A stretch of 13,691 nucleotides of DNA from a virus (IMGVR_UViG_2585427780_000001); one strand, 5' to 3'; positions 1 to 13,691 are shown, counted from the first letter of the stretch. The notes: a model not told the origin generated them from the letters alone. Translations and numbers: made by a program.

Positions 1-123
1 GATGGCTTCGGCCCCCGTTTTCACACGAAGGTCGATGCGGCGGCCAAATCGTTGCAAATCCCCGTAAAGGCAGATGCGTGCCATGCCCGGTGACGCCAGA
101 GGGAGTGTGTGCGTCGCTGCCAT
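1..123 (-). CDS. I: Tail tip assembly protein I, 5' partial (N-terminal 41 codons; rest lies beyond the window start)
   Basis: Not in the ORF track because it runs off the window. Reverse complement of 1-123 starts with ATG at 123-121 and translates MAATHTLPLASPGMARICLYGDLQRFGRRIDLRVKTGAEAI, matching my memory of the lambda gpI N-terminus. It overlaps the 3' end of K by 103 nt in another frame, the same overlap as lambda K/I. Confidence 0.8.
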   Translation of the reverse strand, partial: MAATHTLPLASPGMARICLYGDLQRFGRRIDLRVKTGAEAI

Positions 124-764
124 TTGTCGGTATACCTCTCTCGTTTGCTCAGTTGTTCAGGAATATGGTGCAGCAGCTCGCCGTCGCCGCAGTAAATAGC
201 GGCATGATTCGGCACCGATGAACCAAAACAGCACAGCAGCACATCGCCCGGCTGCGCCGCTGACAACGGCACCTGATACAGCCCTGTAGCCTCCAGATTA
301 TCCAGATAGAGATTCTGACCGTTACGCCACCAGTCATCCCCGCGATGAAAATCCGGCATCTCAATCCCCGCCAGATGGTAAGCATCCCGGAACAGCGTGT
401 AACAGTCCGTCACCCCGTGCTCAAAGCGCCGCCCGGTGAGATGCGGCACACAGCGGAATTTATGAATCTCACCCCGGCAGACCAGCCACCACGGCAAATC
501 ACTCTGCACCTGCAGCCGCCGGTCAGTCTCACTCAGCCAGGGCAGACCACCGGGGTGGCTGTGGACCAGCGCCACAATCTCACCCTGCATTTCTGCCCGC
601 AGCCAGTCCTCCGGCGACATCCGGAAATACTCCTCCGGCTCACCGGAGATATTCACGCAGGGAAAATATCTTTCTCCCTCCGGCGTTCTCACCACGAAGC
701 CGCACGACTCCGCTGGCGCACATCGCCGGGCGTGCGCCAGAATCGCTGATTCTGTCTCTGTCAT
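21..764 (-). CDS. K: Tail tip assembly protein K (JAB/MPN metalloprotease-like plus NlpC/P60-like domains), 247 aa
   Basis: ORF 21..764 with ATG at 764-762, 5 nt after the L stop. Contains an HSHP..S..D JAB/MPN-type motif (ALVHSHPGGLPWLSETD) and a downstream Cys/His region (DCYTLF ... HHIP) typical of gpK. Position between L and I matches lambda. Confidence 0.85.
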   Translation of the reverse strand: MTETESAILAHARRCAPAESCGFVVRTPEGERYFPCVNISGEPEEYFRMSPEDWLRAEMQGEIVALVHSHPGGLPWLSETDRRLQVQSDLPWWLVCRGEIHKFRCVPHLTGRRFEHGVTDCYTLFRDAYHLAGIEMPDFHRGDDWWRNGQNLYLDNLEATGLYQVPLSAAQPGDVLLCCFGSSVPNHAAIYCGDGELLHHIPEQLSKRERYTDKWQRRTHSLWRHRAWHASAFTGICNDLAAASTFV

Positions 765-769
765 GGGAT

Positions 770-1468
770 TTACTGCGAAAGTTTGTTAATGGAAAGGAAG
801 CCGCCAAAGTTGCCGACGTTATTGCGGAACTTACAACCGCTCAGGCATTTGCTGCATTTATCCTTCGTGATATCGGACGTTGGCTGGTCATATTCATCCG
901 CGACCGCCGGACCGTGATAACCGCACTCATCGCCGCGATAGGTCCAGGTGCAGGTGTTGGCCAGCATGATACGTCCCGGAAAAACAGCGCCGTCCGTTTC
1001 CGTCGGCGTGGCCAGTACAAAAGAGGCACTGACCGCGCTCAGTTCGCTGCACTGCTCGATGCGCCAGCGGCTGATCACCTCCTGCTCCGGGTCGGCGTCA
1101 CTGTTTCCGTTGACGAAGTTCACCGCATCCAGAAAACGGGCGTAAACCTTACGCCGGACCACCGTTCCGCCGACCAGACTCTGCAGCTCTTCCGCCATCC
1201 CGGTGACCATACCGTGCAGGTTAGAAACCGTCAGTGTCGGACGGGCAGCACTGCCCTTGCCGTTCAGTTCAAATCCCGTCCCCTGAATGGGATACGGCTG
1301 ATACTGTCGTCTCTGCCAGGTGACCGGCTCACCTTTTTCGTTCTGCTCATTACAGAAAAAATAACGTTCACCACCGACCTCTGTCAGATCGATTTCCCAG
1401 AGCACCACCTGGGCTGACTGAGTGAGGCGTGTCGTCTCATGATGTGTTTCCTGTGGAATATCCTGCAT
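770..1468 (-). CDS. L: Minor tail protein L, 232 aa
   Basis: ORF 770..1468, 232 aa, the same length as lambda gpL. Translation (MQDIPQETHHETTRL ... CSKCLSGCKFRNNVGNFGGFLSINKLSQ) has the C-terminal Cys cluster of gpL and appears near-identical to lambda L from memory. Sits between M and K. Confidence 0.9.
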   Translation of the reverse strand: MQDIPQETHHETTRLTQSAQVVLWEIDLTEVGGERYFFCNEQNEKGEPVTWQRRQYQPYPIQGTGFELNGKGSAARPTLTVSNLHGMVTGMAEELQSLVGGTVVRRKVYARFLDAVNFVNGNSDADPEQEVISRWRIEQCSELSAVSASFVLATPTETDGAVFPGRIMLANTCTWTYRGDECGYHGPAVADEYDQPTSDITKDKCSKCLSGCKFRNNVGNFGGFLSINKLSQ

Positions 1469-1477
1469 CAGAGCCTC

Positions 1478-1807
1478 CTATGCCACGACCTGTTCAAAAT
1501 CTGCCGTTATGGTTACCCACAGCGCCCCCACGCTTGCCGACCATTTACGACAAACCACCCTAATCGGTTTCCAGTCATAAGGTGGCGTCCACTGAAATGC
1601 GCGGACGCCACCGTGCCGTTCCAGAAAGGCTTTTAAAGATGGGTGTTCACATTTACGAACACGTATCGTCACGCTGTAAGTCGACAACTGGTTATTCAGT
1701 CCCGCCGCACGACGCTGTTCATAACCATCGCCCAGCTTCACTGTCACCACTTTCGGCTCTGATACCACATTCATATCCGGGCGCACTTTCCAGTGAAACG
1801 TCTCCAT
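1478..1807 (-). CDS. M: Minor tail protein M, 109 aa
   Basis: ORF 1478..1807, 109 aa as for lambda gpM. Translation METFHWKVRPDM ... FEQVVA resembles lambda M (MKTFRWKVKPGM ... FEQVVN, from memory). Its ATG at 1807-1805 overlaps the H stop TAA (1809-1807) by 1 nt. Confidence 0.85.
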   Translation of the reverse strand: METFHWKVRPDMNVVSEPKVVTVKLGDGYEQRRAAGLNNQLSTYSVTIRVRKCEHPSLKAFLERHGGVRAFQWTPPYDWKPIRVVCRKWSASVGALWVTITADFEQVVA

Positions 1808-4491
1808 TACCGATATGCTCCACTTAACCGACCACCATCACGGGCCTGCTGTTGCATAAAGTCCGCTGCTGCTTTTTTCCCGAGGTCATAAACCACCTTC
1901 AGGGCAGCCGGACCTATCTGCCCGTTCGTGCCATCGTTATTGATCTCGATGTTGTACTGCGGGGCAAACATCGCCATACCTGAACCACCAATATCCGCCA
2001 CAACCCCCAGCTTACCGTCAGCACCACGACGCAGAGGCAGAATGGCTTCAGGCCCAGCTTCCCCCATCACACCTGCACCTTTTGCAAAAGCAAAAAACGT
2101 CGGACGGTTAACCACCGTGCCACTGTAGCGACTCAAATCAGCAGACTGATAAACACCACCATCAGCATTGGGCGTCACACTGGCAGTTGCTGCACTCCCC
2201 CAGCCAAACGCCGAACCAATCCCCTTAACTGTCTGCATCATGGACATCTGAGCCATGATTTTTGCCAGATCAGAAAGGAGCGAGGCGGTAAAAGATTTGA
2301 AGTTCAGTTTTCCGGTGGTACAGAATGTAGCCAGTGCATTACCTGCACTATTAAATGCCGCTGTAAGCATCTGCTCCGCAGTGCCTGCCGCATTATCCGC
2401 ATCTGCCGTGAAATTCTGAAACGCCCGCATGGCACCGTTTTTCCAGTTACCCTGAGCAATTTCAAGCTGTTGCCAGTAACGGCGATTCTCATTCAGTTGC
2501 CTGTTCAGGCTCTCCGTCAGCGCCTGCTCGGCCTTTCTGTAGTCATCCGTGTTATATGTCCCTTTCTGCTCACTATCCCGCCTCAACTGCTCCAGCTGTT
2601 GCTGGTATTTCTGGCGAAGGCTCAGTTGTACCTGATATCGCTGCCGCTGCTGATCACCCATACCCACCGTGGCGATATCCAGGTCATGTTGCTGACGCTG
2701 AGCGCGCTCTTCTTCAGCCAGTTGACTGGTCAGCTGAATTGTTTTTTTCTTCAGATCGTTGAGTGCCGTCTGTTTCTGAAGCTCCTGCTGTTTTACATCC
2801 AGCAGCGTCAGTGCCTGAATCAGTTCATCTTTACGGGCCAGCACACTCTTTTCATCTGCCGTCAGTTTTTTCCCGTCCAGATCGCTGATGCGCTGCTGCA
2901 GAGCCAGAAGCTGTTTATGCGCTTCTGTCATCTTTTCAGTGGCAATGCCTGCTGACTGTCTTGCAGCAGCAATCTGTCCTTCCACCTGTGCCTGTTGCTG
3001 GCTGTACTGCAGCAATAACCGGGTGGCCTCATCATTACGGGTTTCGCGTGTTTTTTTCTTACCGGATGCCAGGGCTTTCTCGTAACGTTCATTTTCACGT
3101 TGTATCGCCGCATCCCTGACAGCCTGATCGGCGTACTGCATGGCATTAATACGCGCAATTTCACGCTGATGTCGTGCTGCTTCCGTTTCATTCATCCGGT
3201 TCAGTGCAGCATTTTCAGCATTACGGCGTTTCTGTTGCTCCTGATAATTCCGCTCTGCCTGCTCTTTTGCATCCTGCAAATCCTTCTGGCGTTTTTTCTC
3301 CTGAAGATCGTTAAGACGCTGCTGATCGTATTCAACCTGAGAAGATGATGCCGTCCAGGGGAGTCTTTTCGCCCGCGACACTTTCTCCTGTAAAGCGGCA
3401 ATCTGTTCATCCAGCGAGTCTTCACGACCAATATTCATGGCCGCATCCCAGAAACGACTCCACAAATCAGACAGATACTTCAGCGTACTGCCAAGCGCAT
3501 TGAGGTTATTATCAATATCCGCAGTACGCCGACCGGTTTCCTCTGCCAGTGCAGACATGGCTATCCGTGCAGCATCACTGGACCGCCCCTGCTCCCCAAG
3601 GACGCGTATCTGCTCAAGCTGAGTGGCAGTAAGAAAATGCAGCTCATTGTCCAGAGCCTTCGCGGCATTTACAGGATCATCCTTCAGCCGCTTAAACTGA
3701 TTTATGGTATCGCTGACCGACTGGCCAACCGATCGCTCCATCTGTGCGGCAGCTCTCGCCACCATACCGATATCGTTTCCACGAAATGCACCACTCCCCA
3801 CCACCTGAGCCAGCGCACCGGCTGCAGCATGTTGCGTGATACCATTCCCGGAAATAGCACGACTGAGCGTCCACAGCTGCCCGGCAGTAACTCCGGCATA
3901 ATGCCCCGTCAGCGACAACTGGCGGTTAAATTCTTCCCCCTCCTTCTGACCGTCATACCAGGCTTTACCCAGACCATAGACGGCCGCGGCAATACCGCCA
4001 ATAACCCCGCCAAGCATCATGCCTTTCGGTGACATCAGTGTGTCTATCCATCCGGCACGGTTAGCCAGCGTTATCCCGGATCCCCTCAGCGCCCCTAAAT
4101 TGCCGCGGGCCAGTTCACCTATCAGAACGCCTATCTCCTGGCGGGCTGCTGCACTTTTCAGACCCAGCGAATGCGTGGCTTTTCCTGCCTGCTCCATTTT
4201 GCGGATATACACTTCTGCAGCACTGCTTACCCCCAGCTGGGCTGCCTTAGCACGAAGCAACTCAGAAGATGAAAGATTCTGGCGGGTTGCCTGCTCTTTA
4301 AGCTGACGGATAAACGCCACTTTCTGTCGGGTAGCCTCTTCCTCAGCCTGTGTAAGAACACGGGTTTTCGCCGTAACCTCAGAAATCAGCGCCAGATAAT
4401 CCTGCTGACCAATCCCGCCACTGTTTCTGGCCTGTCGGATCTGCTGCTGAATACGCTGTAATTCCTGCAGCCCCGCACTGGCCTGTTTCAC
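1807..4491 (-). CDS. H: Tail tape measure protein H, major 894-codon segment downstream of an in-frame TAG (GTG at 4491 is only the first in-frame start-like codon after the stop)
   Basis: ORF 1807..4491. Has a hydrophobic Gly-rich segment (LMSPKGMMLGGVIGGIAAAVYGLGKAWYDGQ), a long charged Q/E/R/K-rich coiled-coil-like middle, and a C-terminus NNDGTNGQIGPAALKVVYDLGKKAAADFMQQQARDGGRLSGAYR like the lambda gpH C-terminus. It is in the same frame as 4504..4881. Confidence 0.85.
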   Translation of the reverse strand: MKQASAGLQELQRIQQQIRQARNSGGIGQQDYLALISEVTAKTRVLTQAEEEATRQKVAFIRQLKEQATRQNLSSSELLRAKAAQLGVSSAAEVYIRKMEQAGKATHSLGLKSAAARQEIGVLIGELARGNLGALRGSGITLANRAGWIDTLMSPKGMMLGGVIGGIAAAVYGLGKAWYDGQKEGEEFNRQLSLTGHYAGVTAGQLWTLSRAISGNGITQHAAAGALAQVVGSGAFRGNDIGMVARAAAQMERSVGQSVSDTINQFKRLKDDPVNAAKALDNELHFLTATQLEQIRVLGEQGRSSDAARIAMSALAEETGRRTADIDNNLNALGSTLKYLSDLWSRFWDAAMNIGREDSLDEQIAALQEKVSRAKRLPWTASSSQVEYDQQRLNDLQEKKRQKDLQDAKEQAERNYQEQQKRRNAENAALNRMNETEAARHQREIARINAMQYADQAVRDAAIQRENERYEKALASGKKKTRETRNDEATRLLLQYSQQQAQVEGQIAAARQSAGIATEKMTEAHKQLLALQQRISDLDGKKLTADEKSVLARKDELIQALTLLDVKQQELQKQTALNDLKKKTIQLTSQLAEEERAQRQQHDLDIATVGMGDQQRQRYQVQLSLRQKYQQQLEQLRRDSEQKGTYNTDDYRKAEQALTESLNRQLNENRRYWQQLEIAQGNWKNGAMRAFQNFTADADNAAGTAEQMLTAAFNSAGNALATFCTTGKLNFKSFTASLLSDLAKIMAQMSMMQTVKGIGSAFGWGSAATASVTPNADGGVYQSADLSRYSGTVVNRPTFFAFAKGAGVMGEAGPEAILPLRRGADGKLGVVADIGGSGMAMFAPQYNIEINNDGTNGQIGPAALKVVYDLGKKAAADFMQQQARDGGRLSGAYR

Positions 4492-4503
4492 ACTGTCAAT
4501 CTA

Positions 4504-4881
4504 ACGATAAAACGCAGCAGCCGCTTTATCCTGAGCCTCCGCCAGAGCCATGGCCTGCGCCTGTTCATCGCGCATTTTCTGGCTCAGCGCCTCCATGCGC
4601 TGGCGGGTTTTCTCCACCTCGCGGGCCATGCGTTCATGAGCCTGTGCGTTCTTCTCCACCGTCTGCGCATGGACGGAGGCGGCTGTTGCAGCCGAAGAAG
4701 CCGCCTGCGTTGTCTGCCGGGCGGCCTGAGTCTGACGCTCCATAAAACGCTGCATACGGGCAGAAGACCGTTCTGCATCGCTGGCGGCACCATTCAGAAG
4801 GTTTTTGATACGGGGAATTTCATTTTTAAACTCTGCCGCATCAATCCCCAAATCAATGACCAGGTTGGCTATCTGGTCCAT
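4504..4881 (-). pseudogene. H: Tail tape measure protein H, N-terminal 126-codon segment ending at in-frame TAG (4503-4501)
   Basis: ATG at 4881-4879 preceded by GGAGGTG 8 nt upstream. Translation MDQIANLVIDLGIDAAEFKNE... resembles the lambda gpH N-terminus (MAEPVGDLVVDLSLDAARFDEQ, from memory). Same reading frame as 1807..4491 (4911-4491 = 420, divisible by 3), separated from it only by TAG plus 3 codons. Confidence 0.75.
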
Positions 4882-5203
4882 AACGCACACCTCCGGAAAT
4901 ACCTTCTCCAAGATGCATCAGTTCTTCGTCCGTTCGCTCCGGTATCCCGTTCTCTTCCGGTAAAAGGCTGAAATCAGCCACCGCAGCATCACTGCTGCCG
5001 GACACCATTCTCACGATCAATGCCTTCAGCGAGGCAAACTGCGCATCCATCCACACATCACTGAAGCTCTGCATCCGGAAATAATCGCCCCACTCACCAA
5101 GCTCAGTGGCCGACATTTCCGACAGCATCCGCCGCCAGTCTGCCCGCCGGAACTCCCGGGCAAGCCGCATGACAAACTGCATTTCCCGCGTCAGGACTTT
5201 TCC
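4853..5203 (-). CDS. T: T portion of tail assembly chaperone gpGT, reached by programmed -1 frameshift from G
   Basis: ORF 4853..5182 is in the -1 frame relative to G. That frame is open upstream to a stop at 5218-5216 and overlaps the last codons of G. Sequence GGAAAAG (5203-5197) lies 1 codon before the G stop, where lambda has its G/GT slip site. Its 3' end overlaps the H start by 29 nt. Confidence 0.7.
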   Translation of the reverse strand, partial: GKVLTREMQFVMRLAREFRRADWRRMLSEMSATELGEWGDYFRMQSFSDVWMDAQFASLKALIVRMVSGSSDAAVADFSLLPEENGIPERTDEELMHLGEGISGGVRYGPDSQPGH

Positions 5204-5577
5204 GGCGTCAGCGCCTCATGCTCATCATCCCCGGCATTATCAATGGCCCCCATACCGCTCAGCGACAGAACCATCTCCGCCCCCGCACCCAGGGCATCAT
5301 ACGACCATGTTGTAATAACGGATGCGCAAAGCGTCTCTACATCCTTAGACTGATCCGCATTCCACAGTGAGCGGGAAACCAGCCAGGCATTGATATCCAT
5401 CCCCATCCGCAGAAAAGCAATCTGTCGTTCAGCCTCCGGCAGTTCTCCCTCCCCGGCATCAAACTTTGCCGTTCGCTGCTGAACAAACGCCAGATATTCA
5501 ATTCTCTGCAGCCCGGACAGCTCACTGAGCACCACGGACTGTTTTTCATAATTAAACGTGCCCTGTTTCAGAAACAT
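5191..5577 (-). CDS. G: Tail assembly chaperone G, about 128 aa
   Basis: ORF 5191..5619. Chosen start is ATG at 5577-5575 (MFLKQGTF..., like lambda gpG MFLK...) with GGAG 6 nt upstream; a second ATG lies at 5580. The ORF-track start at 5619 is TTG and would overlap the upstream terminator hairpin. Contains SELSGLQRIEYLAF, like lambda G SELSALQRIEHLAL. Confidence 0.75.
   Translation of the reverse strand: MFLKQGTFNYEKQSVVLSELSGLQRIEYLAFVQQRTAKFDAGEGELPEAERQIAFLRMGMDINAWLVSRSLWNADQSKDVETLCASVITTWSYDALGAGAEMVLSLSGMGAIDNAGDDEHEALTPEKS
5197..5203 (-). promoter_or_regulatory. Candidate -1 programmed ribosomal frameshift heptamer G GAA AAG (G to GT)
   Basis: Minus-strand sequence ACG CCG GAA AAG TCC TGA ends gene G. 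Shifting -1 at GAA AAG gives GGA AAA GTC CTG ... which continues into the T frame. The lambda site is G GGA AAG (established knowledge). Confidence 0.55.
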
Positions 5578-5593
5578 CATGTTCTCCACCTGC

Positions 5594-5617
5594 AAAAAAG
5601 CCCCGGATAACCGGGGC
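5594..5617 (-). terminator. Rho-independent terminator-like hairpin between V and G (GCCCCGG-UUAU-CCGGGGC followed by U6)
   Basis: Plus 5600-5617 gccccggataaccggggc preceded by aaaaaa (5594-5599). On the minus-strand transcript this is a perfect 7-bp GC-rich stem, a 4-nt loop, then UUUUUU, sitting 20 nt after the V stop. Confidence 0.6.
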
Positions 5618-5637
5618 AAATGATGAGTATCGTCCTG

Positions 5638-6381
5638 TTAACCTGCGGCGCTGACAGCCACCGCAGCCACGGCCACAAAATCGCCGTCAGAAGTCATGCC
5701 CACAATGCTGACACTGCCCTGCTTCACGCCTTTCACCGTGGCCACAAGCCCGTTCAGGGTCACCGTGGCAGTCTGTGGATCTGTCGAATGTACACTGATC
5801 GCTTTGTCACTGGCTCCGTCAGGTTTTACTGTAAAGGTCAGCGTGGTGGTTGCTCCCACTTTTACACTGGCAGATGCTGGTGCCACCGTCAGCCCGGTAA
5901 CGCTCACTGTTTCAGTGCCTTCCTCTGCCAGATGCGGACGCCCCACACCGCTGATTTTCACTGTGCGGGTCATCACGTCTTTTGAGGCAATGGTTTTACC
6001 CAGTGAGCTCAGCCAGCCACGGAAAACATCAACAGTGCCGTTGGGATATTTGATACGAAACGCGCAGACTTCACCGGAGTCGAACAACTGAACCAGTTTT
6101 TTCTGCCCGCTGTCACCCGGACGCCAGGCCAGCGTCGCCGAAGTATCACCGACGGATTTCTGCCCCTGGGTTGTCGTTTTCCAGTCTGCATCTTCATCAT
6201 CGAGATAAGTGTCATCTTCTGCATCAGCGGTCATTTCGCCAGGTTGCAGATCCTTCACCATCGCAAGACGCAGCCAGTCAGTGTCCGATAAAGGGTTCGC
6301 AAACGCATCGCCCTTGCCGGTGTACATCCAGAACGTCGTTCCCGCACCTTTCGTTTTTGCCAGTGGATTTGGTGTGGTCAT
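5638..6381 (-). CDS. V: Major tail tube protein V with C-terminal Ig-like (Big_2-type) domain, 247 aa
   Basis: ORF 5638..6387. ATG at 6381-6379 is preceded by AAAGGAGGTG; the ORF-track start at 6387 is GTG. Translation MTTPNPLAKTKGAGTTFWMY...YLDDEDADW...NGTVDVFRGW matches lambda gpV motifs, and the C-terminal Thr/Val/Ser-rich segment is typical of the gpV Ig-like domain. Confidence 0.9.
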   Translation of the reverse strand: MTTPNPLAKTKGAGTTFWMYTGKGDAFANPLSDTDWLRLAMVKDLQPGEMTADAEDDTYLDDEDADWKTTTQGQKSVGDTSATLAWRPGDSGQKKLVQLFDSGEVCAFRIKYPNGTVDVFRGWLSSLGKTIASKDVMTRTVKISGVGRPHLAEEGTETVSVTGLTVAPASASVKVGATTTLTFTVKPDGASDKAISVHSTDPQTATVTLNGLVATVKGVKQGSVSIVGMTSDGDFVAVAAVAVSAAG

Positions 6382-6392
6382 TGCCACCTCCT

Positions 6393-6794
6393 TTAATTCG
6401 TGTACGTGATCTGGTACGTGATTTCCGCCATCGCCCAGGTGGCCATCTCATTATCACGTTGATAGTTAAAACCGAGAGGGATCAGGGTGTCGATGAGTCC
6501 GGAAAGTGCCGGTATATCATTCAGAGCCGGGAAAATGGTGCTCTCCATCCACATATCCAGCTCTGAATCCGGTGCCTGTGCCCGGATGAAGACAGCAATA
6601 TGCAGAACAGCCTGCCAGTCATCTTCATCCGTCATTTTTCCGGTGTACTGAGCATCACTCAGCCACACCGCCACGGCAGGCAGTTCCTGCGCATCAATAA
6701 ATGCCGGAAGCCCGTCAAAAAACGTGGCGCTGTCTCCACACTGTTCCCGAAGGCGTGCCAGTACGGCCTGGCGGATTTGTGTATGTCGGTTCAT
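6393..6794 (-). CDS. U: Tail terminator protein U, about 133 aa
   Basis: ORF 6393..6806. ATG at 6794-6792 forms an ATGA overlap with the Z stop (6793-6791); an alternative ATG at 6806 would add 4 codons. Contains ATFFDG...PAVAV...DIPALS, like lambda gpU from memory. Confidence 0.8.
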   Translation of the reverse strand: MNRHTQIRQAVLARLREQCGDSATFFDGLPAFIDAQELPAVAVWLSDAQYTGKMTDEDDWQAVLHIAVFIRAQAPDSELDMWMESTIFPALNDIPALSGLIDTLIPLGFNYQRDNEMATWAMAEITYQITYTN

Positions 6795-7369
6795 CGGGTC
6801 AGCCATAACCTCAGTTGTTGTTTCAGTGCATACCCCAGCTGTTTCGGCATTTCCGCAGCAATAATGCGGTCGCGGGCATCTTCAAATGCCTGTGTCAGCG
6901 GTCCGGACAGCGGGACTTTCACCACATCAATGGGGTAACGATTTTTGCCATCAATACGCCGCATCACATGCCAGCGACCATTCGCCAGTTGCTGAATAAA
7001 CGCATCCCGGAAAAGATATTTACCCACCTTCAGCACACTGCCACGGTACTGCAGTTTTCCACCACGCCGGGCCAGTCTGACCCGGGCTGTCCCCAGCTTA
7101 ATAGCGGGCAGATTGCCCCGGTTAACGCGGATCCTGGCCGTCATTTTTCCTGACGGACTGGCTTTAAACACCCGGACACGCTGACGTACCAGTTTCAGGG
7201 GGATCCCTTTCACCTGGTTATCTCCCGCAACGGTATTCCCGGCAACCTGCCGGGTGGCGACCGAGACCGCTTTCTGTGCCACACGGTTTATCGCCCATGC
7301 GCTGGCCTGTGGCACCATACGGGTATCAAGGCTGTTCAGATTACGGATGGCATTCTCAAGCCCCTTCAT
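6791..7369 (-). CDS. Z: Tail completion protein Z-like, 192 aa
   Basis: ORF 6791..7369, 192 aa as for lambda gpZ. ATG at 7369-7367 is preceded by AGAGGTG. Assigned by position between the FII-like gene and U and by size; I cannot align it to lambda Z from memory. Confidence 0.7.
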   Translation of the reverse strand: MKGLENAIRNLNSLDTRMVPQASAWAINRVAQKAVSVATRQVAGNTVAGDNQVKGIPLKLVRQRVRVFKASPSGKMTARIRVNRGNLPAIKLGTARVRLARRGGKLQYRGSVLKVGKYLFRDAFIQQLANGRWHVMRRIDGKNRYPIDVVKVPLSGPLTQAFEDARDRIIAAEMPKQLGYALKQQLRLWLTR

Positions 7370-7380
7370 CCCACACCTCT

Positions 7381-7656
7381 TTACTCAATAAAGATCATTG
7401 GCTTACCGTTAAAACGTTCATGCCGTGTGACCGTCCATTGTTGTCCGTCATAAACAACGCGATCCCCGCGCCGTGGGCGGTATCCCGAAGAAAACACCAC
7501 CAGAGAGACCGCAGGTCCGGACAGAGCATTCAGCTCTGCCAGTGTTTCTCCCGGGATCACAGTCATATCGACATCATTAATCGAGGCTGTCTTTCCCATC
7601 TTTCTGACCGTGATCGCATCCATACGCGCTGCCAGCCGGGAAAAGGGATCAGACAT
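7381..7656 (-). CDS. Head-tail joining (head completion) protein, FII-like, 91 aa
   Basis: ORF 7381..7656. ATG at 7656-7654 overlaps the upstream gene stop (ATGTCTGA, 8 nt). The C-terminal motif RRGDRVVYDGQQWTV resembles lambda gpFII RRGDTLTIGEENFWV (from memory). Sits immediately upstream of Z. Confidence 0.6.
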   Translation of the reverse strand: MSDPFSRLAARMDAITVRKMGKTASINDVDMTVIPGETLAELNALSGPAVSLVVFSSGYRPRRGDRVVYDGQQWTVTRHERFNGKPMIFIE

Positions 7657-7972
7657 TGAGTTTTACCGGCACTTCTTCTGCACTGGTTCCGGCATCTGCC
7701 CAGACAACCCCGACCAGCGGATCAGAGCCGCTGTTAGTCAACTGAACTTTTCCGGACTTCAGATAAACCTTCTTACCCGTTTTCATGTCATCCGTTTTCA
7801 GCTTAGGCAGCATAAACACACCTTCGGTCAGGCCGTCGCCTGTTTCACCCTGTGGAATATCGGTCAGCGCTACCGCAAAAACATCACCCACCTGCACCAG
7901 ATCTCCGCTGCTGATGGCTGCACTGGCAACAATCGCCACCGTTTTTCCTTCTTCTACAAAATTCTTTGCCAT
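7649..7972 (-). CDS. Small head protein of uncertain function (candidate decoration or head-stabilisation protein), 107 aa
   Basis: ORF 7649..8017. ATG at 7972-7970 (MAKNFVEEGKTV...) is preceded by GGAG 7 nt upstream. Lies directly after the capsid gene and its hairpins and before the FII-like gene. No recognisable catalytic motif. Confidence 0.6.
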   Translation of the reverse strand: MAKNFVEEGKTVAIVASAAISSGDLVQVGDVFAVALTDIPQGETGDGLTEGVFMLPKLKTDDMKTGKKVYLKSGKVQLTNSGSDPLVGVVWADAGTSAEEVPVKLNV

Positions 7973-8015
7973 AACTGTCTCCGCACAGCCCCGTTCAGGG
8001 GCTGATTTCAGGTAC

Positions 8016-8035
8016 AAAAAAAGCCCTTACGGGCC
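8016..8035 (-). terminator. Weak terminator-like hairpin after the capsid gene (GCCC-GUAA-GGGC followed by U7)
   Basis: Plus 8023-8034 gcccttacgggc preceded by aaaaaaa (8016-8022). On the minus transcript this is a 4-5 bp GC stem with a GNRA-type loop and then UUUUUUU, 23 nt after the capsid stop. A second, 7-bp hairpin (plus 7986-8004, CAGCCCC-UGAAC-GGGGCUG) follows. Confidence 0.4.
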
Positions 8036-8058
8036 ATCAGAGTTGTTGTCTGCGACGT

Positions 8059-10017
8059 TTACGCCGTACATTTCACCAGACCGCGGTGATCAACTGGCGC
8101 GACACCGGCGTCAATACGCACTTTCGTTGTCACGCCATCCACACTGAAGCCCTCCATCTGATCAATATATGGCGTATCCACACCGTTGAGATAAGCCACT
8201 TCAATCGTATCGGAGCCTTTTGACGCAGCCAGGTAGAAGGTGGTCTGGCTGTTATCATCAAGACGAGGCTCTGCAATAACGGTCGCAAAATCTTTCACCG
8301 GGTTAATAATACCGGCGTTAATGTCAGCCCCCTTGACACTTGAGGAGCGAATGACCTGGTTAGCAACAGACTCCATCGCCGTCGGTACCAGTACGAACGC
8401 AGGACGAATATTCAGATGACGCTCCCCCTCTTTCTGAACGCGCATCAACTGGCGGGCTTTATCCAGCGATGCCACGTCCATTGCAGCGCTCTCCAGTACG
8501 TTTGCATGTTTCGCTTTATCGAACAGACTTACATTATCTGTGGAGATTTTCGGGTTAGACGTCAGAATGGCATAAACCAGATCGGCAATAGTGGATTTCG
8601 CCGCACGGCCCAACTTCATCGGGACATCGGTCAGCATATTCAGATAATCATTGATAATGGCCTGACGGGTGATACTGAACAGCTCGCCATAGGTCGCCAG
8701 TGCAATAGTGGCCTGTTTATCTCCGGTGGTGACGTATTTATATTCCGCCCCTTCACGCACCTGACGCAGAGCACTGAAGCCCCCCATACCCACACGATGG
8801 GCAATTTTAAAATCAGACAACTGACCTGTCCGCGTCCACTGTTCATAGGTTTCAGGGGCATCTTCCCAGCCCTGCAGAATGGCTTTGTTCGCAACATCCA
8901 GCAGAATATTACCGAAGTCAGACGTACTGTGTGTGAACGCCGCACCGACCATCTGCATCGGGTTATAACTGGAAACCCCAATACCCCGTTCAGTCAGTGA
9001 CATACGGGCATATTCACGCAGGGTCATCCCGTTGTAGACATTATCACGTTCGGTTTTTTCAAATCCGGCACGCGCCATCAGCGCCTGGCGGATCCCGTCC
9101 CCCACAAAATTACCGTTACCGGCATAAATATGAGCCGGGGGATTTTTATTGGATGGCGTGGACTCGCGCCCCATCTCGTTCAACAGCTTTTCGCGGGCCT
9201 GCTCCAGCGAACATTCAGGATCGGCAAGACACTGAGCCTGCAGCGTCTGATAACGCCCGCCAAACATGGCAAACAGATCATTAATACCGTTTACACGCGC
9301 TTTTTGCTCTGCCAGTACCTGCGCACGGATGCTGTTTTCATCCACCACGGGTGCTGCTGCCTGCACTGGCGTCCGGGAGGCTTCAGGTTCATTATCCTGT
9401 ACGCGTGGAGCACTGTTGCGTGGCGGAGTAATCATGTTTCGAATGGATTCCGGCATCTTTTTAAATTCCTCTGTACGTTTTGACTGAATACATGCCATTG
9501 CCTTAACGGCTGGCGTTACCTGATCAGCAAATCCATGTGCCAGACATTCGGCACCGGACATCCAGGTCTCATCCGCCAGCATGGCAGCAATTTCATCGGT
9601 GGTTTTCCCGGTTTTCTGTGCATAAGCGGGTAACAGAACCGCCTCAACTTTATCGAGCAGGTCGGCATAGGTGCGCATGTCCTCCGCATCACCGCCCGTA
9701 AAGCCAAATGGTTTATGAATCATCATGAAGGTGTTTTCCGGCATAATGACCGGGTTTCCCACCATCGCAATGACCGACGCCATTGATGCCGCCACACCGT
9801 CGACATAAACGGTAATGGACGCACCATGTGTTTTCAGCGCATTAAAAATGGCGATGCCTTCAAAGACATCGCCACCCGGTGAATTGATATGGAGATTAAT
9901 GTGGGTGATATCGCCCAGTGCATTCAGATCACTGATAAACTGCTTCGCTGTAACACCCCAGAAACCAATCTCGTCATAAATATAAATATCCGCGTCACTC
10001 TGGTGACCAGCCTGCAT
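8059..10017 (-). CDS. Fused prohead protease (ClpP-like) - scaffold - major capsid protein, about 652 aa
   Basis: ORF 8059..10278. The first ATG after the portal stop is at 10017-10015 (MQAGHQSDADIYIYDEIGFWG...); earlier in-frame starts would overlap the portal gene out of frame. The N-terminal part looks ClpP-like (INSPGGDVFEGIAIFNA...ASMASVIAM), the middle is Ala/Gln/Glu-rich, and the C-terminal half looks like a phage major capsid protein. Confidence 0.85.
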   Translation of the reverse strand: MQAGHQSDADIYIYDEIGFWGVTAKQFISDLNALGDITHINLHINSPGGDVFEGIAIFNALKTHGASITVYVDGVAASMASVIAMVGNPVIMPENTFMMIHKPFGFTGGDAEDMRTYADLLDKVEAVLLPAYAQKTGKTTDEIAAMLADETWMSGAECLAHGFADQVTPAVKAMACIQSKRTEEFKKMPESIRNMITPPRNSAPRVQDNEPEASRTPVQAAAPVVDENSIRAQVLAEQKARVNGINDLFAMFGGRYQTLQAQCLADPECSLEQAREKLLNEMGRESTPSNKNPPAHIYAGNGNFVGDGIRQALMARAGFEKTERDNVYNGMTLREYARMSLTERGIGVSSYNPMQMVGAAFTHSTSDFGNILLDVANKAILQGWEDAPETYEQWTRTGQLSDFKIAHRVGMGGFSALRQVREGAEYKYVTTGDKQATIALATYGELFSITRQAIINDYLNMLTDVPMKLGRAAKSTIADLVYAILTSNPKISTDNVSLFDKAKHANVLESAAMDVASLDKARQLMRVQKEGERHLNIRPAFVLVPTAMESVANQVIRSSSVKGADINAGIINPVKDFATVIAEPRLDDNSQTTFYLAASKGSDTIEVAYLNGVDTPYIDQMEGFSVDGVTTKVRIDAGVAPVDHRGLVKCTA

Positions 10018-10063
10018 CCTGAACCAGGAATTATTCTTCGGACTGGTCGTCGGTGTACTGCGG

Positions 10064-11539
10064 CTACTGTCGTTTCGTTGCGGCACTGCTGCCTCCTTTA
10101 TCACTGGCCGGATCGGTATCAAATACCAGGTCCAGCTTGCGGTTTTCATCAATTTCGGCCTTGCGCCGACGTTTGACATCATCCGGATTACGACCACCTG
10201 CACGTACCCAGTCTGATTCTGTCGCCGCTCCACCACGAATCTGGATTTTCCAGGCCTCAGCCTCCTTAACAGGGTCAATCCACGGCATCACCGGTCCGGA
10301 ATACACCGCGGTATACAGTGAAGAACGGTCAAGATCGCGGGGTAGCCTGATAACACCGGATGCCACAGCCTGTTTCAGCCAGGCACGATACATCGGGCGG
10401 GTGACGGCACCAATAAACCAGTCCTGCAGGATCAGGTAGCCATCAGTGGATTCAACCAGCTCCTGACGCTGGGCGCTGTAAGTGCCGTTATAGTTGCGCG
10501 CTGTACTGGAAAAACTCAGACGACTGCCCGCCGCCACGGCACGCAACTGAGCATTACGAAAAGTTTCAAGGTTAGGATTTGGGCGATCCGACTTCACCAT
10601 TCCGATTTCTTCGCCGGGTTTCAGATCGTCGTAAATAATGCCTGGCTGAATGGTAAGCTCGCGTTCATTCTCCTTGCTGTCATTACCATCCGTTTCATAG
10701 CTCTGTCCGTCGCCTTTGCGGATGTACATCCCCAGAGCAGCGGCGACCCTTGCTGCAGTCAGCTCAGAATCTTCATACTCTTTCAGGGCGCTGAGGCGGA
10801 TCAGCACACCGGACAATAAAGACGTCCCGCGCATCTGGTGCAGACGGCGAACAAATTTAAGATGCAGCATTCGCTCTGCATCCACTTCTTTGGTTTCCAT
10901 CTGCCGTCCGGATACAGGACGACTTTTATACACCAGATATTTTTCGGGACGCCCCCAGTCATCAACAAACACGCCCTGATTCAGCCTGTTGCTCTCATCA
11001 CTGGTCATGGGAATAAAGTCCGGCTCGAGCGCCTCCAGCCAGAAATGAACACCGGCAGAAGGCGTCAGGCTGTTTATGCGCCCGGAAACCATCTGGGCAA
11101 ACACCTCACCATCGCGCAGCCAGGTACGAAGCATCAGACGTTCCAGCATCGGACGGGTAAACTGCCCGGTGACTTCCGGGCTGACAGACCATTCACTCCA
11201 TCGGGTGCGAATCTCCGCAGCCAGGTCACGGGCAATGGCCCCATTGCGTAATACCGGATGTGGCTCGACAATAATCCCGTTTTTCCCCACCACCCGTTCT
11301 TCCAGCTTGTCAAATACACCAATAACCAGATCGTGGTTGTTATCAAGGTAACGGGCCTGCTCACGTAACGACACGGCCCCGTACTGGCTTAACTGGTCGG
11401 CAGTTCGGTTCTCCCGTCGGGCTTTGTGTGTCCGCGTCGTTTTTACGGCCTCATAAGCCTGGATCACCGCACGGGAACGCAGCCTTGCCGCTTTCCATCC
11501 TGGTGAAAAAACGCCAATCACATCATCAAGAATTGCCAT
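10064..11539 (-). CDS. Portal protein, about 491 aa
   Basis: ORF 10064..11611. ATG at 11539-11537 overlaps the W stop (TGATG) and has GAGG 5 nt upstream. Size and position between the W-like gene and the protease-capsid gene are those of a lambdoid portal; the start codon is uncertain (11611 is possible). Confidence 0.8.
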   Translation of the reverse strand: MAILDDVIGVFSPGWKAARLRSRAVIQAYEAVKTTRTHKARRENRTADQLSQYGAVSLREQARYLDNNHDLVIGVFDKLEERVVGKNGIIVEPHPVLRNGAIARDLAAEIRTRWSEWSVSPEVTGQFTRPMLERLMLRTWLRDGEVFAQMVSGRINSLTPSAGVHFWLEALEPDFIPMTSDESNRLNQGVFVDDWGRPEKYLVYKSRPVSGRQMETKEVDAERMLHLKFVRRLHQMRGTSLLSGVLIRLSALKEYEDSELTAARVAAALGMYIRKGDGQSYETDGNDSKENERELTIQPGIIYDDLKPGEEIGMVKSDRPNPNLETFRNAQLRAVAAGSRLSFSSTARNYNGTYSAQRQELVESTDGYLILQDWFIGAVTRPMYRAWLKQAVASGVIRLPRDLDRSSLYTAVYSGPVMPWIDPVKEAEAWKIQIRGGAATESDWVRAGGRNPDDVKRRRKAEIDENRKLDLVFDTDPASDKGGSSAATKRQ

Positions 11540-11751
11540 CAGAACCTCGCCAGCCGATACCCGGGATGCCCCCGTCGTCGTGTAATCAGAGCCGCAAGGC
11601 GGCGCTCCCACTCCTGCCGTCCCTGCCTGATCTCAGATAAGTTTTCCATGGTCATCTGCTGACCATTAAAGGTGACGGATTTTCCGTCCAGCACCGCCAT
11701 TTCAGCTTCCGTATAACGCTGAATCATGGCTTCGATATCATTCTGGTTCAT
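11539..11751 (-). CDS. W: Head-tail joining protein, gpW-like, about 70 aa
   Basis: ORF 11539..11757. ATG at 11751-11749 forms an ATGA overlap with the terminase stop and has GGAGG 6 nt upstream; the ATG at 11757 has the SD abutting it. Size and position (terminase then W then portal) match lambda W. Confidence 0.7.
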   Translation of the reverse strand: MNQNDIEAMIQRYTEAEMAVLDGKSVTFNGQQMTMENLSEIRQGRQEWERRLAALITRRRGHPGYRLARF

Positions 11752-13371
11752 AACCATCCTCCGGAAGTCAGCCAGGGGTTAACATCGTCAGTTACTGTTT
11801 TCTTCCGTTTTTGTTTTTTAACAGGCGTGGATACCGGTTCCGGTGAGGATGACGGTTCGGTACTGTCCGGGACACACTCCAGCCAGGTTTCCCGGCTCGC
11901 CCACTCCGGTGCATCCGGCCAGCGGATCTTTTCGTATCCATGCAGAATGACCAGAGCCTCGGCATACACCATCAGGTCAAAAGCTTCGTTGGCACCGCGA
12001 CCCGGCTTACTCCATTTCCCGTCACTGCTCCGCTCTTCATACGTCAGTTCGTCGTAAAACCAGCTCCCCAGCCAGTCAGGGAAATGCACATAGCCGGGAC
12101 CTGGCGAGTCACGCCATAACGCGTTATTCACCCGGTCTTTCAGTGCATCCGTCTGAAGAAGCCAGAGCGGCACATCACCTGCGGCCTGCGCCCGTCGGCC
12201 CGTTCGTCCGGTGTTATCAGGGAATGTACGGGGGATCAGTTTTGCGCGCCGGATGCTGTCGCCCTTAAACAGGTAAATACGTTTACCAAGGCCATCACGA
12301 CGGCAACGACGCCAGAATTTATAGGCATTATCAGTGACCCCGTCTTCACCGCCGGAGTCCACCGCCATTGCCATCAGTCGCATTTGTTGAGAAGGATCGG
12401 AGGCCAGCGGCCAGCTTTTATGAAAAACATCCGTCAGCAGGACATCCCAGTCTTCCGGATAGCTGGCCGGATCAATTCGCTGGCTCTCCCCGTCGCTGTC
12501 ACCGCGCAATGACTGCGTGATGTTGTAACGATCAATAATCCAGCGTTCGCCACGGCTGCCATAGCCCGTTACCTGAACCACAAAACGGCGATGACGTCCC
12601 GCCTGCACATCCACTGTCGCCACAAGAAAATTAACGCCATCTGGCACACTGCGGGAAGGAACTGGCTCTGCCCGCTGCTCAAGCAGTTCACTTTTTCGTT
12701 GCTCCATGCTGGCGCGGGGAAGATAAGGTAATCCCCAGTCGGTGTTGATAACCGCCCTGAGTGTTTCTTCACTTCCTGTCGCTTCATACTCCTGTTCTGC
12801 AGTCAGTAATTTGTAAACCAGTTGCGCCCAGGTCTGATACGCAGCAGCTGGCCCTTCCATCCAGAAACTGGCGATACGGGAGCGGCGCGGTTCACCGGAA
12901 ACGTTGCCGTTACAATCAATGACCTGACCTTCACGCAACCAGACTCCTGCACTATTGAGCTCACGCTTTTTCTCCGCAGTGATAATGCCGCTGCAGTGCG
13001 GGCAAAGTAGATACGCCGCCTCACTGGCTTTAAAGGGATCCGGTTCATTACGGTAGCCGGTCATGGCATCCATGGCTGGCTGAAAATATTCACCGCAGTG
13101 CGGACATGGCCAGTACCAGCGGCGGCGGTCACCACGATTGTAAAGGGAAAGAATACCAGTCGTCGGTGGCGCTTCATGAGGCGACTTACGTCGCCATTTG
13201 CTGTCGCAGATGTCACGTCCCGGCGAGCTCTCCACCAGAGTCATCCCGGCGGACATAAATGTGGTGGTACGTTTTGAGGCCAGGGAGAAACCATCACCCT
13301 CGCTGTCGATATTCTCCGGAAAACGGTCGTAATCGGTTAAGGCGACAAACCGGTAATCCGACGACGACATA
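11748..13371 (-). pseudogene. A: Terminase large subunit (gpA-like), 5'-truncated by IS1 insertion; about 540 C-terminal codons remain
   Basis: ORF 11748..13385. Contains WPCPHCGEYF (compare lambda gpA ACPHCGEEQ) about 93 codons in, which suggests roughly 135 N-terminal codons are missing. The reading frame runs directly into the IS1 terminus at 13372; the apparent start MESL is encoded inside IS1. Confidence 0.85.
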
Positions 13372-13691
13372 GGTAATGACTCCAACTTATTGATAGTGTT
13401 TTATGTTCAGATAATGCCCGATGACTTTGTCATGCAGCTCCACCGATTTTGAGAACGACAGCGACTTCCGTCCCAGCCGTGCCAGGTGCTGCCTCAGATT
13501 CAGGTTATGCCGCTCAATTCGCTGCGTATATCGCTTGCTGATTACGTGCAGCTTTCCCTTCAGGCGGGATTCATACAGCGGCCAGCCATCCGTCATCCAT
13601 ATCACCACGTCAAAGGGTGACAGCAGGCTCATAAGACGCCCCAGCGTCGCCATAGTGCGTTCACCGAATACGTGCGCAACAACCGTCTTCC
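13372..13691 (-). mobile_element. IS1 insertion sequence, partial (about 320 bp of about 768 bp; continues beyond window end)
   Basis: 13372 onward reads GGTAATGACTCCAACTTATTGATAGTGTTTTATGTTCAGATAATGCCCGATGAC..., which I recognise as the IS1 terminal inverted repeat and adjacent sequence. It contains the 3' end of insB. Confidence 0.9.
13387..13691 (-). CDS. insB: IS1 transposase InsB, 3' partial (C-terminal about 101 codons; 5' part beyond window)
   Basis: Minus-strand frame translates ...[100 protein letters not shown], matching the IS1 InsB C-terminus. The frame is open to the window edge. Confidence 0.88.

Follow-up and report, generated by a model that had tools for sequence, protein, structure and literature searches.

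A rare amber codon interrupts a lambdoid prophage tape measure gene in a young Escherichia coli lineage and probably reflects early prophage decay

Amber Codon in a Lambda-Type Tape Measure Gene

The amber codon that splits the tape measure gene H of this prophage is very probably a genuine, recent inactivating nonsense mutation, a case of ordinary early prophage decay that has turned H into a pseudogene in one young lineage of E. coli. We analysed a stretch of 13,691 nucleotides (IMGVR_UViG_2585427780_000001), hereafter the window, which carries the block of late genes from a mEp460/cdtI-type lambdoid prophage.

The tape measure frame lies on the minus strand. A mechanical ORF list gave two ORFs in one frame, 4501..4911 (TTG start, 136 aa) and 1807..4491 (GTG start, 894 aa), and the translation of 1807-4911 contained one internal stop, the frame being open otherwise. 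The peptides IANLVIDLGIDAAEF and NNDGTNGQIGPAALK were both found in this translation. Direct reading of the minus strand around the site gave ...GCG TTT TAT CGT TAG ATT GAC AGT GTG AAA CAG.... By homology, the true start of the tape measure gene is the ATG at 4881. The frame and its parts are as follows.

1807..4881, minus strand: whole lambda H-type tape measure frame, 1024 codons plus stop; pseudogene, collinear with WP_001459760.1
4501..4881, minus strand: N-terminal fragment, 126 codons plus TAG; native ATG at 4881, preceded by a GGAGG Shine-Dalgarno sequence
4501..4503, minus strand: amber codon TAG, from CAG (Gln127) via C>T at 4503 (G>A on the plus strand)
1807..4491, minus strand: 894-codon ORF; in-frame GTG at 4491-4489, 9 nt past the stop, with no ribosome-binding site

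The 126 codons, the TAG, three further codons (IDS) and the 894 codons sum to 1024 codons, and the intact orthologue WP_001459760.1 (3075 nt) has exactly the length of this reconstructed frame. Both pieces align collinearly with tape measure genes that are intact, and on this comparison the interrupted frame is not a product of chance. The 894-codon ORF is called as a separate gene by gene callers. The initial annotation had described a single TAG at 4503-4501 splitting one H frame, and the strand sequence, the ORF list and the translation all bear this out. It gave the right coordinates, sizes of the pieces and peptides, and its quotation of the strand is accurate apart from one base, TTC TAT having been given where the sequence has TTT TAT.

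Domain content, homology at both ends and gene position identify the interrupted gene as a lambda-family (gpH-like) tape measure. In the intact version, Pfam detected TMP_2 at 168 bits (cut-off 30.2), Tape_meas_lam_C at 84 bits (cut-off 23) and TMP_4 at 63 bits (cut-off 27), and all three tape measure domains were placed within the 894-residue part. Residues 289-1024 aligned with residues 122-853 of lambda gpH (E = 2e-47), and residues 2-56 aligned with gpH residues 3-57 (33% identity, E = 4e-8). Since the latter match lies within the 126-codon fragment, the upstream piece is the real N-terminus of the tape measure and not an unrelated gene. The earlier view that both flanks of the stop are tape-measure-like thus holds for each of them.

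The gene also sits where a tape measure gene is expected. The late genes on the minus strand run from the terminase large subunit through a 70-aa protein, the portal protein, a ClpP-protease/major-capsid fusion and the head-tail joining and tail genes to G, T, the tape measure gene and homologues of M, L and K. Around the tape measure gene, the Pfam order is Phage_TAC_2, Phage_tail_T, tape measure protein, Phage_min_tail and Phage_tail_L. The G/T pair is directly upstream of the tape measure start and overlaps it; T lies in the -1 frame with respect to G.

4853..5577, minus strand: tail assembly chaperone genes G (5577-5191) and T (5182-4853), intact

Ancestral Codon and Rarity of the Stop

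Comparison with relatives revealed the ancestral codon. Over the 501 bases around the site (window 4250-4750), every base is the same as in the intact genes of the closest complete E. coli genomes, with the sole exception of position 4503, which is T here and C there. The nearest complete E. coli genome, NZ_AP022215.1, has CAG (Gln127) and differs from window 1-13371 at five positions: two in the tape measure (Q127* and A884T), two in the capsid fusion (T316P and D481Y) and one in terL, the large terminase gene (T539P). CAG is also found at codon 127 in 64EVA, and in five out of five isolated phages that form plaques or were induced (cdtI, mEp460, Tritos, Ayreon and phi458). These phages are 97-99% identical to the window over the 501-base region and share its gene order; unlike in the window, their tape measure gene is unbroken, with codon 127 reading CAG.

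The CAG form is common and the TAG form very scarce. A 33-mer carrying CAG matched 1950 places in 1801 of the 5426 complete E. coli genomes, whereas the TAG 33-mer, centred on the codon, had no match in the same 5426 genomes. A 61-mer search agreed, with no 100% match among 1809 records. Three further scans, of the GTDB species representatives, the IMG/VR viral contigs and the JGI metagenome contigs, likewise returned no match to the TAG allele, which surfaced solely through an exact-protein look-up of the 126-aa fragment. Because orthologues and isolated phages have CAG and the TAG 33-mer is absent from the complete genomes, the stop is derived and rare, and not a feature of the gene family.

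These counts bear directly on the idea of a programmed stop, either at a conserved site of recoding or read-through or within a two-gene layout that is normal in this phage lineage. Nothing speaks for this idea beyond the existence of the stop itself. TAG occurs in none of the approximately 1950 homologous places, the five isolated phages all have CAG, and the orthologues are annotated as single 1024-codon genes; its probability is practically nil. The orthologues, each a single CDS with a sense codon at the site, rule out both a two-gene architecture and a conserved stop. The initial annotation had named, as an observation that would overturn its reading, tape measure genes that start near 4491 behind an unrelated gene, and the orthologues have no such arrangement. 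The comparison with orthologues that it proposed gave CAG in the relatives and TAG only here and in the clade described below.

Two local features of the site were also considered. Deamination at a Dcm site was rejected as a cause, as the context, TCGTCAGAT, is by direct reading not CCWGG. A scan for promoter-like or terminator-like signals created at the site reported none there, and a TTGACA over codons 128-130 was discarded as a new signal because it is present in the wild type too, without a -10 partner.

A Shallow Clade of Amber Carriers

The identical 126-aa fragment was found on 18 contigs by the exact-sequence look-up, and nine of these places were retrieved. They comprise four NCBI assemblies (GCA_000714055.1, GCA_958328675.1, GCA_002991975.1 and GCA_000714385.1) and five Logan assemblies of SRA runs. 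The window itself is one of the nine: it corresponds to JORB01000096.1 of GCA_000714385.1, with 100% identity over 13,691 bases in the reversed orientation. The fragment has been deposited as KEL07849.1 and under other accessions, and the associated names include E. coli 4-203-08_S3_C2 and _C3. A literature search on the strain name yielded nothing relevant.

All nine retrieved contigs contain the 126-aa ORF followed by the rest of the frame, the 894-aa ORF was called in the seven that are long enough, and direct alignment of the contigs showed the TAG to be identical. This recurrence bears on whether the stop could be a sequencing or assembly error in a draft contig, an option raised by the initial annotation. 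The window is a short draft-assembly contig, and its private A>C changes at 12233 and 9141, seen in no other assembly, could themselves be errors. The TAG, however, is present in nine assemblies or runs, the window's own among them, and its reproduction across both the NCBI assemblies and the SRA-run assemblies led us to reject an error at this codon, the chance of which we consider minute.

Among themselves, the amber carriers differ by 0-3 SNPs over 13-20 kb. Two substitutions accompany the amber codon in the clade, and the two Thr-to-Pro changes, which correspond to the A>C changes mentioned above, are private to the window.

8646, minus strand: D481Y in the ClpP-protease/major-capsid fusion; in all amber carriers that cover the site, a clade marker
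2232, minus strand: A884T in the tape measure; in the covered amber carriers except the locus L010

The shared TAG and D481Y, together with so few SNPs in 13-20 kb, point to a single recent origin, and the pattern of the clade fits one such origin followed by clonal descent. Eight of the nine clade SNPs are non-synonymous. Between two relatives with intact genes, by comparison, 52 of 74 codon differences are synonymous and 22 non-synonymous (Fisher p = 0.001 versus the clade). The non-synonymous excess is suggestive: it fits a loss of selection on the virion genes, and it is also expected of very young polymorphisms under any selection on function.

A Second Lesion in the Window's Strain

The window's copy carries a further lesion, in the large terminase gene.

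11748..13371, minus strand: large terminase gene (terL), first ~159 codons missing through interruption by IS1; private T539P at 12233
13372..13691, minus strand: 3' end of IS1 including its terminal inverted repeat, adjoining terL; the contig stops within the element

The segment 13372-13691 is 90.6% identical to an IS1 that is annotated in 64EVA, and Pfam assigned DDE_Tnp_IS1 to positions 60-305 of the window's locus, L008. The junction reads ...CAATAAGTTGGAGTCATTACC, and IS1 joins terL at about codon 159/160 of 699. This junction occurs in the window's copy only: terL encodes 699 aa in the set L005-L010, where L008 alone has a called remnant of 540 aa. The lesion is either a simple insertion or an IS1-mediated deletion, and either way the window has no intact large-terminase gene. 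With terL broken, this copy could not package DNA from that gene, whatever the state of H.

Outside the window's strain, the late-gene cluster of the amber clade is otherwise intact, and most clade members have one lesion only. Since their other late genes are intact, the prophage there has taken no more than the first step of decay, and leaky function is conceivable.

Expected Consequences for Tail Assembly and Possible Rescue

We propose that codon 127 of the tape measure gene went from CAG to TAG by a spontaneous C-to-T transition in an ancestor of one young lineage. Ribosomes starting at the native ATG would then stop after 126 residues and release only a short N-terminal peptide; without the full-length protein no tails would form, and the prophage would make no infectious particles. 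Selection does not maintain virion production in a silent prophage, and the lesion was therefore probably inherited vertically along with the host chromosome. Later, in the strain that the window comes from, IS1 would have entered the large terminase gene. The initial annotation had listed a nonsense mutation marking prophage decay among its options, and this is the one favoured by the CAG ancestor, the single C>T change, the shallow clade with its mostly non-synonymous SNPs and the IS1 in terL.

A leaky or suppressed amber codon would soften these consequences. A suppressor tRNA, or basal read-through of UAG, might supply enough full-length protein for some tails. A TAG followed by A, as here, is a context classically favourable for suppression, and basal near-cognate read-through of UAG usually involves tRNA-Gln, which would restore the ancestral residue. 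The late operon is, as noted, otherwise intact outside the window's strain. Furthermore, lambda gpH acts as a trimer per tail (PMC10721106), so that little tape measure protein would be needed. Against this, neither the window nor any of eight related loci, which span up to 21 kb each, carries a tRNA gene, and none lies within about 10 kb on either side at any locus. The clade is shallow and clonal-looking (0-3 SNPs), the window's copy has also lost terL, and the allele is absent from IMG/VR, the JGI metagenomes and the 5426 complete genomes, with no sign of phage spread. We therefore regard it as unlikely that suppression or leaky read-through matters, and the specific proposal that some tails are made in this way has a low probability. 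A variant in which the amber acts as a natural conditional mutation, such that the clade members with intact terL release some phage while productive growth is limited to suppressing hosts, is somewhat less probable again.

Termination followed by reinitiation at the GTG would offer another route to function, through a working N-truncated tape measure of 894 residues and possibly shorter tails. The in-frame GTG lies only 9 nt after the TAG, restarts after nonsense codons are established in lacI and T4 rIIB, and the three Pfam tape measure domains all fall within the part that would be made. However, no Shine-Dalgarno sequence precedes the GTG: the anti-SD duplex was calculated at +0.4 kcal/mol, versus -10.8 kcal/mol for the native start, so only a post-termination restart is conceivable. 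The product would also be without the N-terminal piece, which contains the stretch shared with lambda gpH. The lactococcal phage TP901-1 needs the first 154 residues of its tape measure for infectivity, which every deletion among them abolished (PMC5099701), although this phage serves as an analogy only. The possibility of a restart, raised in the initial annotation, thus keeps the nearby GTG in its favour and loses on the missing Shine-Dalgarno sequence and the missing conserved N-terminus; its probability is very low, below that of either form of suppression. We return, then, to the inactivating nonsense mutation as the preferred explanation, under which tail assembly would be lost, inheritance would be vertical and suppression would be lacking.

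Implications and Comparison with Known Systems

For annotation, the 126-aa and 894-aa ORFs, which have been deposited as separate proteins (e.g., KEL07849.1), should be recorded as one tape measure pseudogene. With H stopped by the amber codon and terL broken by IS1, the prophage of the window's strain should be scored as defective. The clade illustrates neatly, and in datable form, how prophage inactivation begins, with one nonsense SNP and then an IS, and it could serve as a lineage marker. This is nonetheless a case of ordinary early prophage decay, which has little import beyond annotation and bears on no open question.

The amber (sus) mutants of lambda gene H, which are classical conditional-lethal tail mutants, provide the closest precedent. 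The window resembles them in that its amber codon falls within a lambda-family siphophage tape measure gene, between the G/T chaperones and M, and the expected phenotype is the same, namely no tails in a non-suppressing host. It differs in that its amber arose naturally in a resident prophage and was not selected on a suppressor host. Moreover, the 1024-codon relative of gpH in the window has only about 25% identity to the lambda protein and is known here from its sequence.

Cryptic or defective lambdoid prophages of E. coli (e.g., Qin, Rac and DLP12 of K-12) have decayed by point mutation, IS insertion and deletion. Inactivating lesions likewise mark the lambdoid prophage in the window, where a nonsense codon breaks H and IS1 breaks terL; unlike in those prophages, decay here is very early, and all the other late genes are full length. 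The related intact prophage of NZ_AP022215.1 sits in ydfJ, the Qin locus, and more than 10 kb separate this host DNA from every gene of the window.

Tape measure protein and the upstream G-T region

When the tape measure protein of the window was compared with lambda gpH (window 4250-4880), it was found to carry approximately 170 additional residues, rich in Ala, Gln, and Arg. This addition is flanked on one side by the conserved segment at the N-terminus (residues 2-56) and on the other by the TMP_2 domain, which begins at residue 228; the amber codon falls within the addition.

The tail assembly chaperone genes G and T lie directly upstream, with the T reading frame at -1 relative to G. GGAAAAG, a variant of the GGGAAAG of lambda, is the likely G-T frameshift site. 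T is listed in public records as a gene of its own.

Gene G terminus
5191-5210, minus strand: 3' end of gene G, ...CCG GAA AAG TCC TGA

Head genes and the terminase lesion

A single fused reading frame encodes both head protease and major capsid protein, an arrangement that is usual in this phage group. The fusion gene and the portal gene share 23 bases, at the start of the former and the 3' end of the latter.

Features of the head gene region
8059-10086, minus strand: ClpP-like protease/capsid fusion, 675 aa
9141: A>C, ACC (Thr) to CCC (Pro), capsid fusion gene
12233: A>C, ACC (Thr) to CCC (Pro), terL
13372-13691: final 320 bases of IS1 at the contig end, junction 13371/13372

The large terminase gene (terL) of the window is broken by IS1 at about codon 159/160; in other amber-clade members it is intact and encodes 699 aa. 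The lesion may represent either an insertion or an IS1-mediated deletion, both of which are compatible with the window sequence. The A>C changes at 12233 and 9141 are private to the window, being absent from every other clade assembly; they may be genuine mutations or artefacts of assembly.

In strain 64EVA (NZ_CP138399.1), an IS1 copy (locus L004, 2608-3305) lies approximately 500 bp upstream of the related prophage's small-terminase-like gene. It is a different copy, sharing 90.6% identity with the IS1 of the window, and the two insertions are separate events.

Integration site of the intact relative

In the closest complete E. coli genome (NZ_AP022215.1, locus L019, 2289346-2290629), the intact related prophage is inserted in ydfJ, the locus that in E. 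coli K-12 holds Qin, a cryptic prophage. ydfJ is annotated there without its N-terminus.
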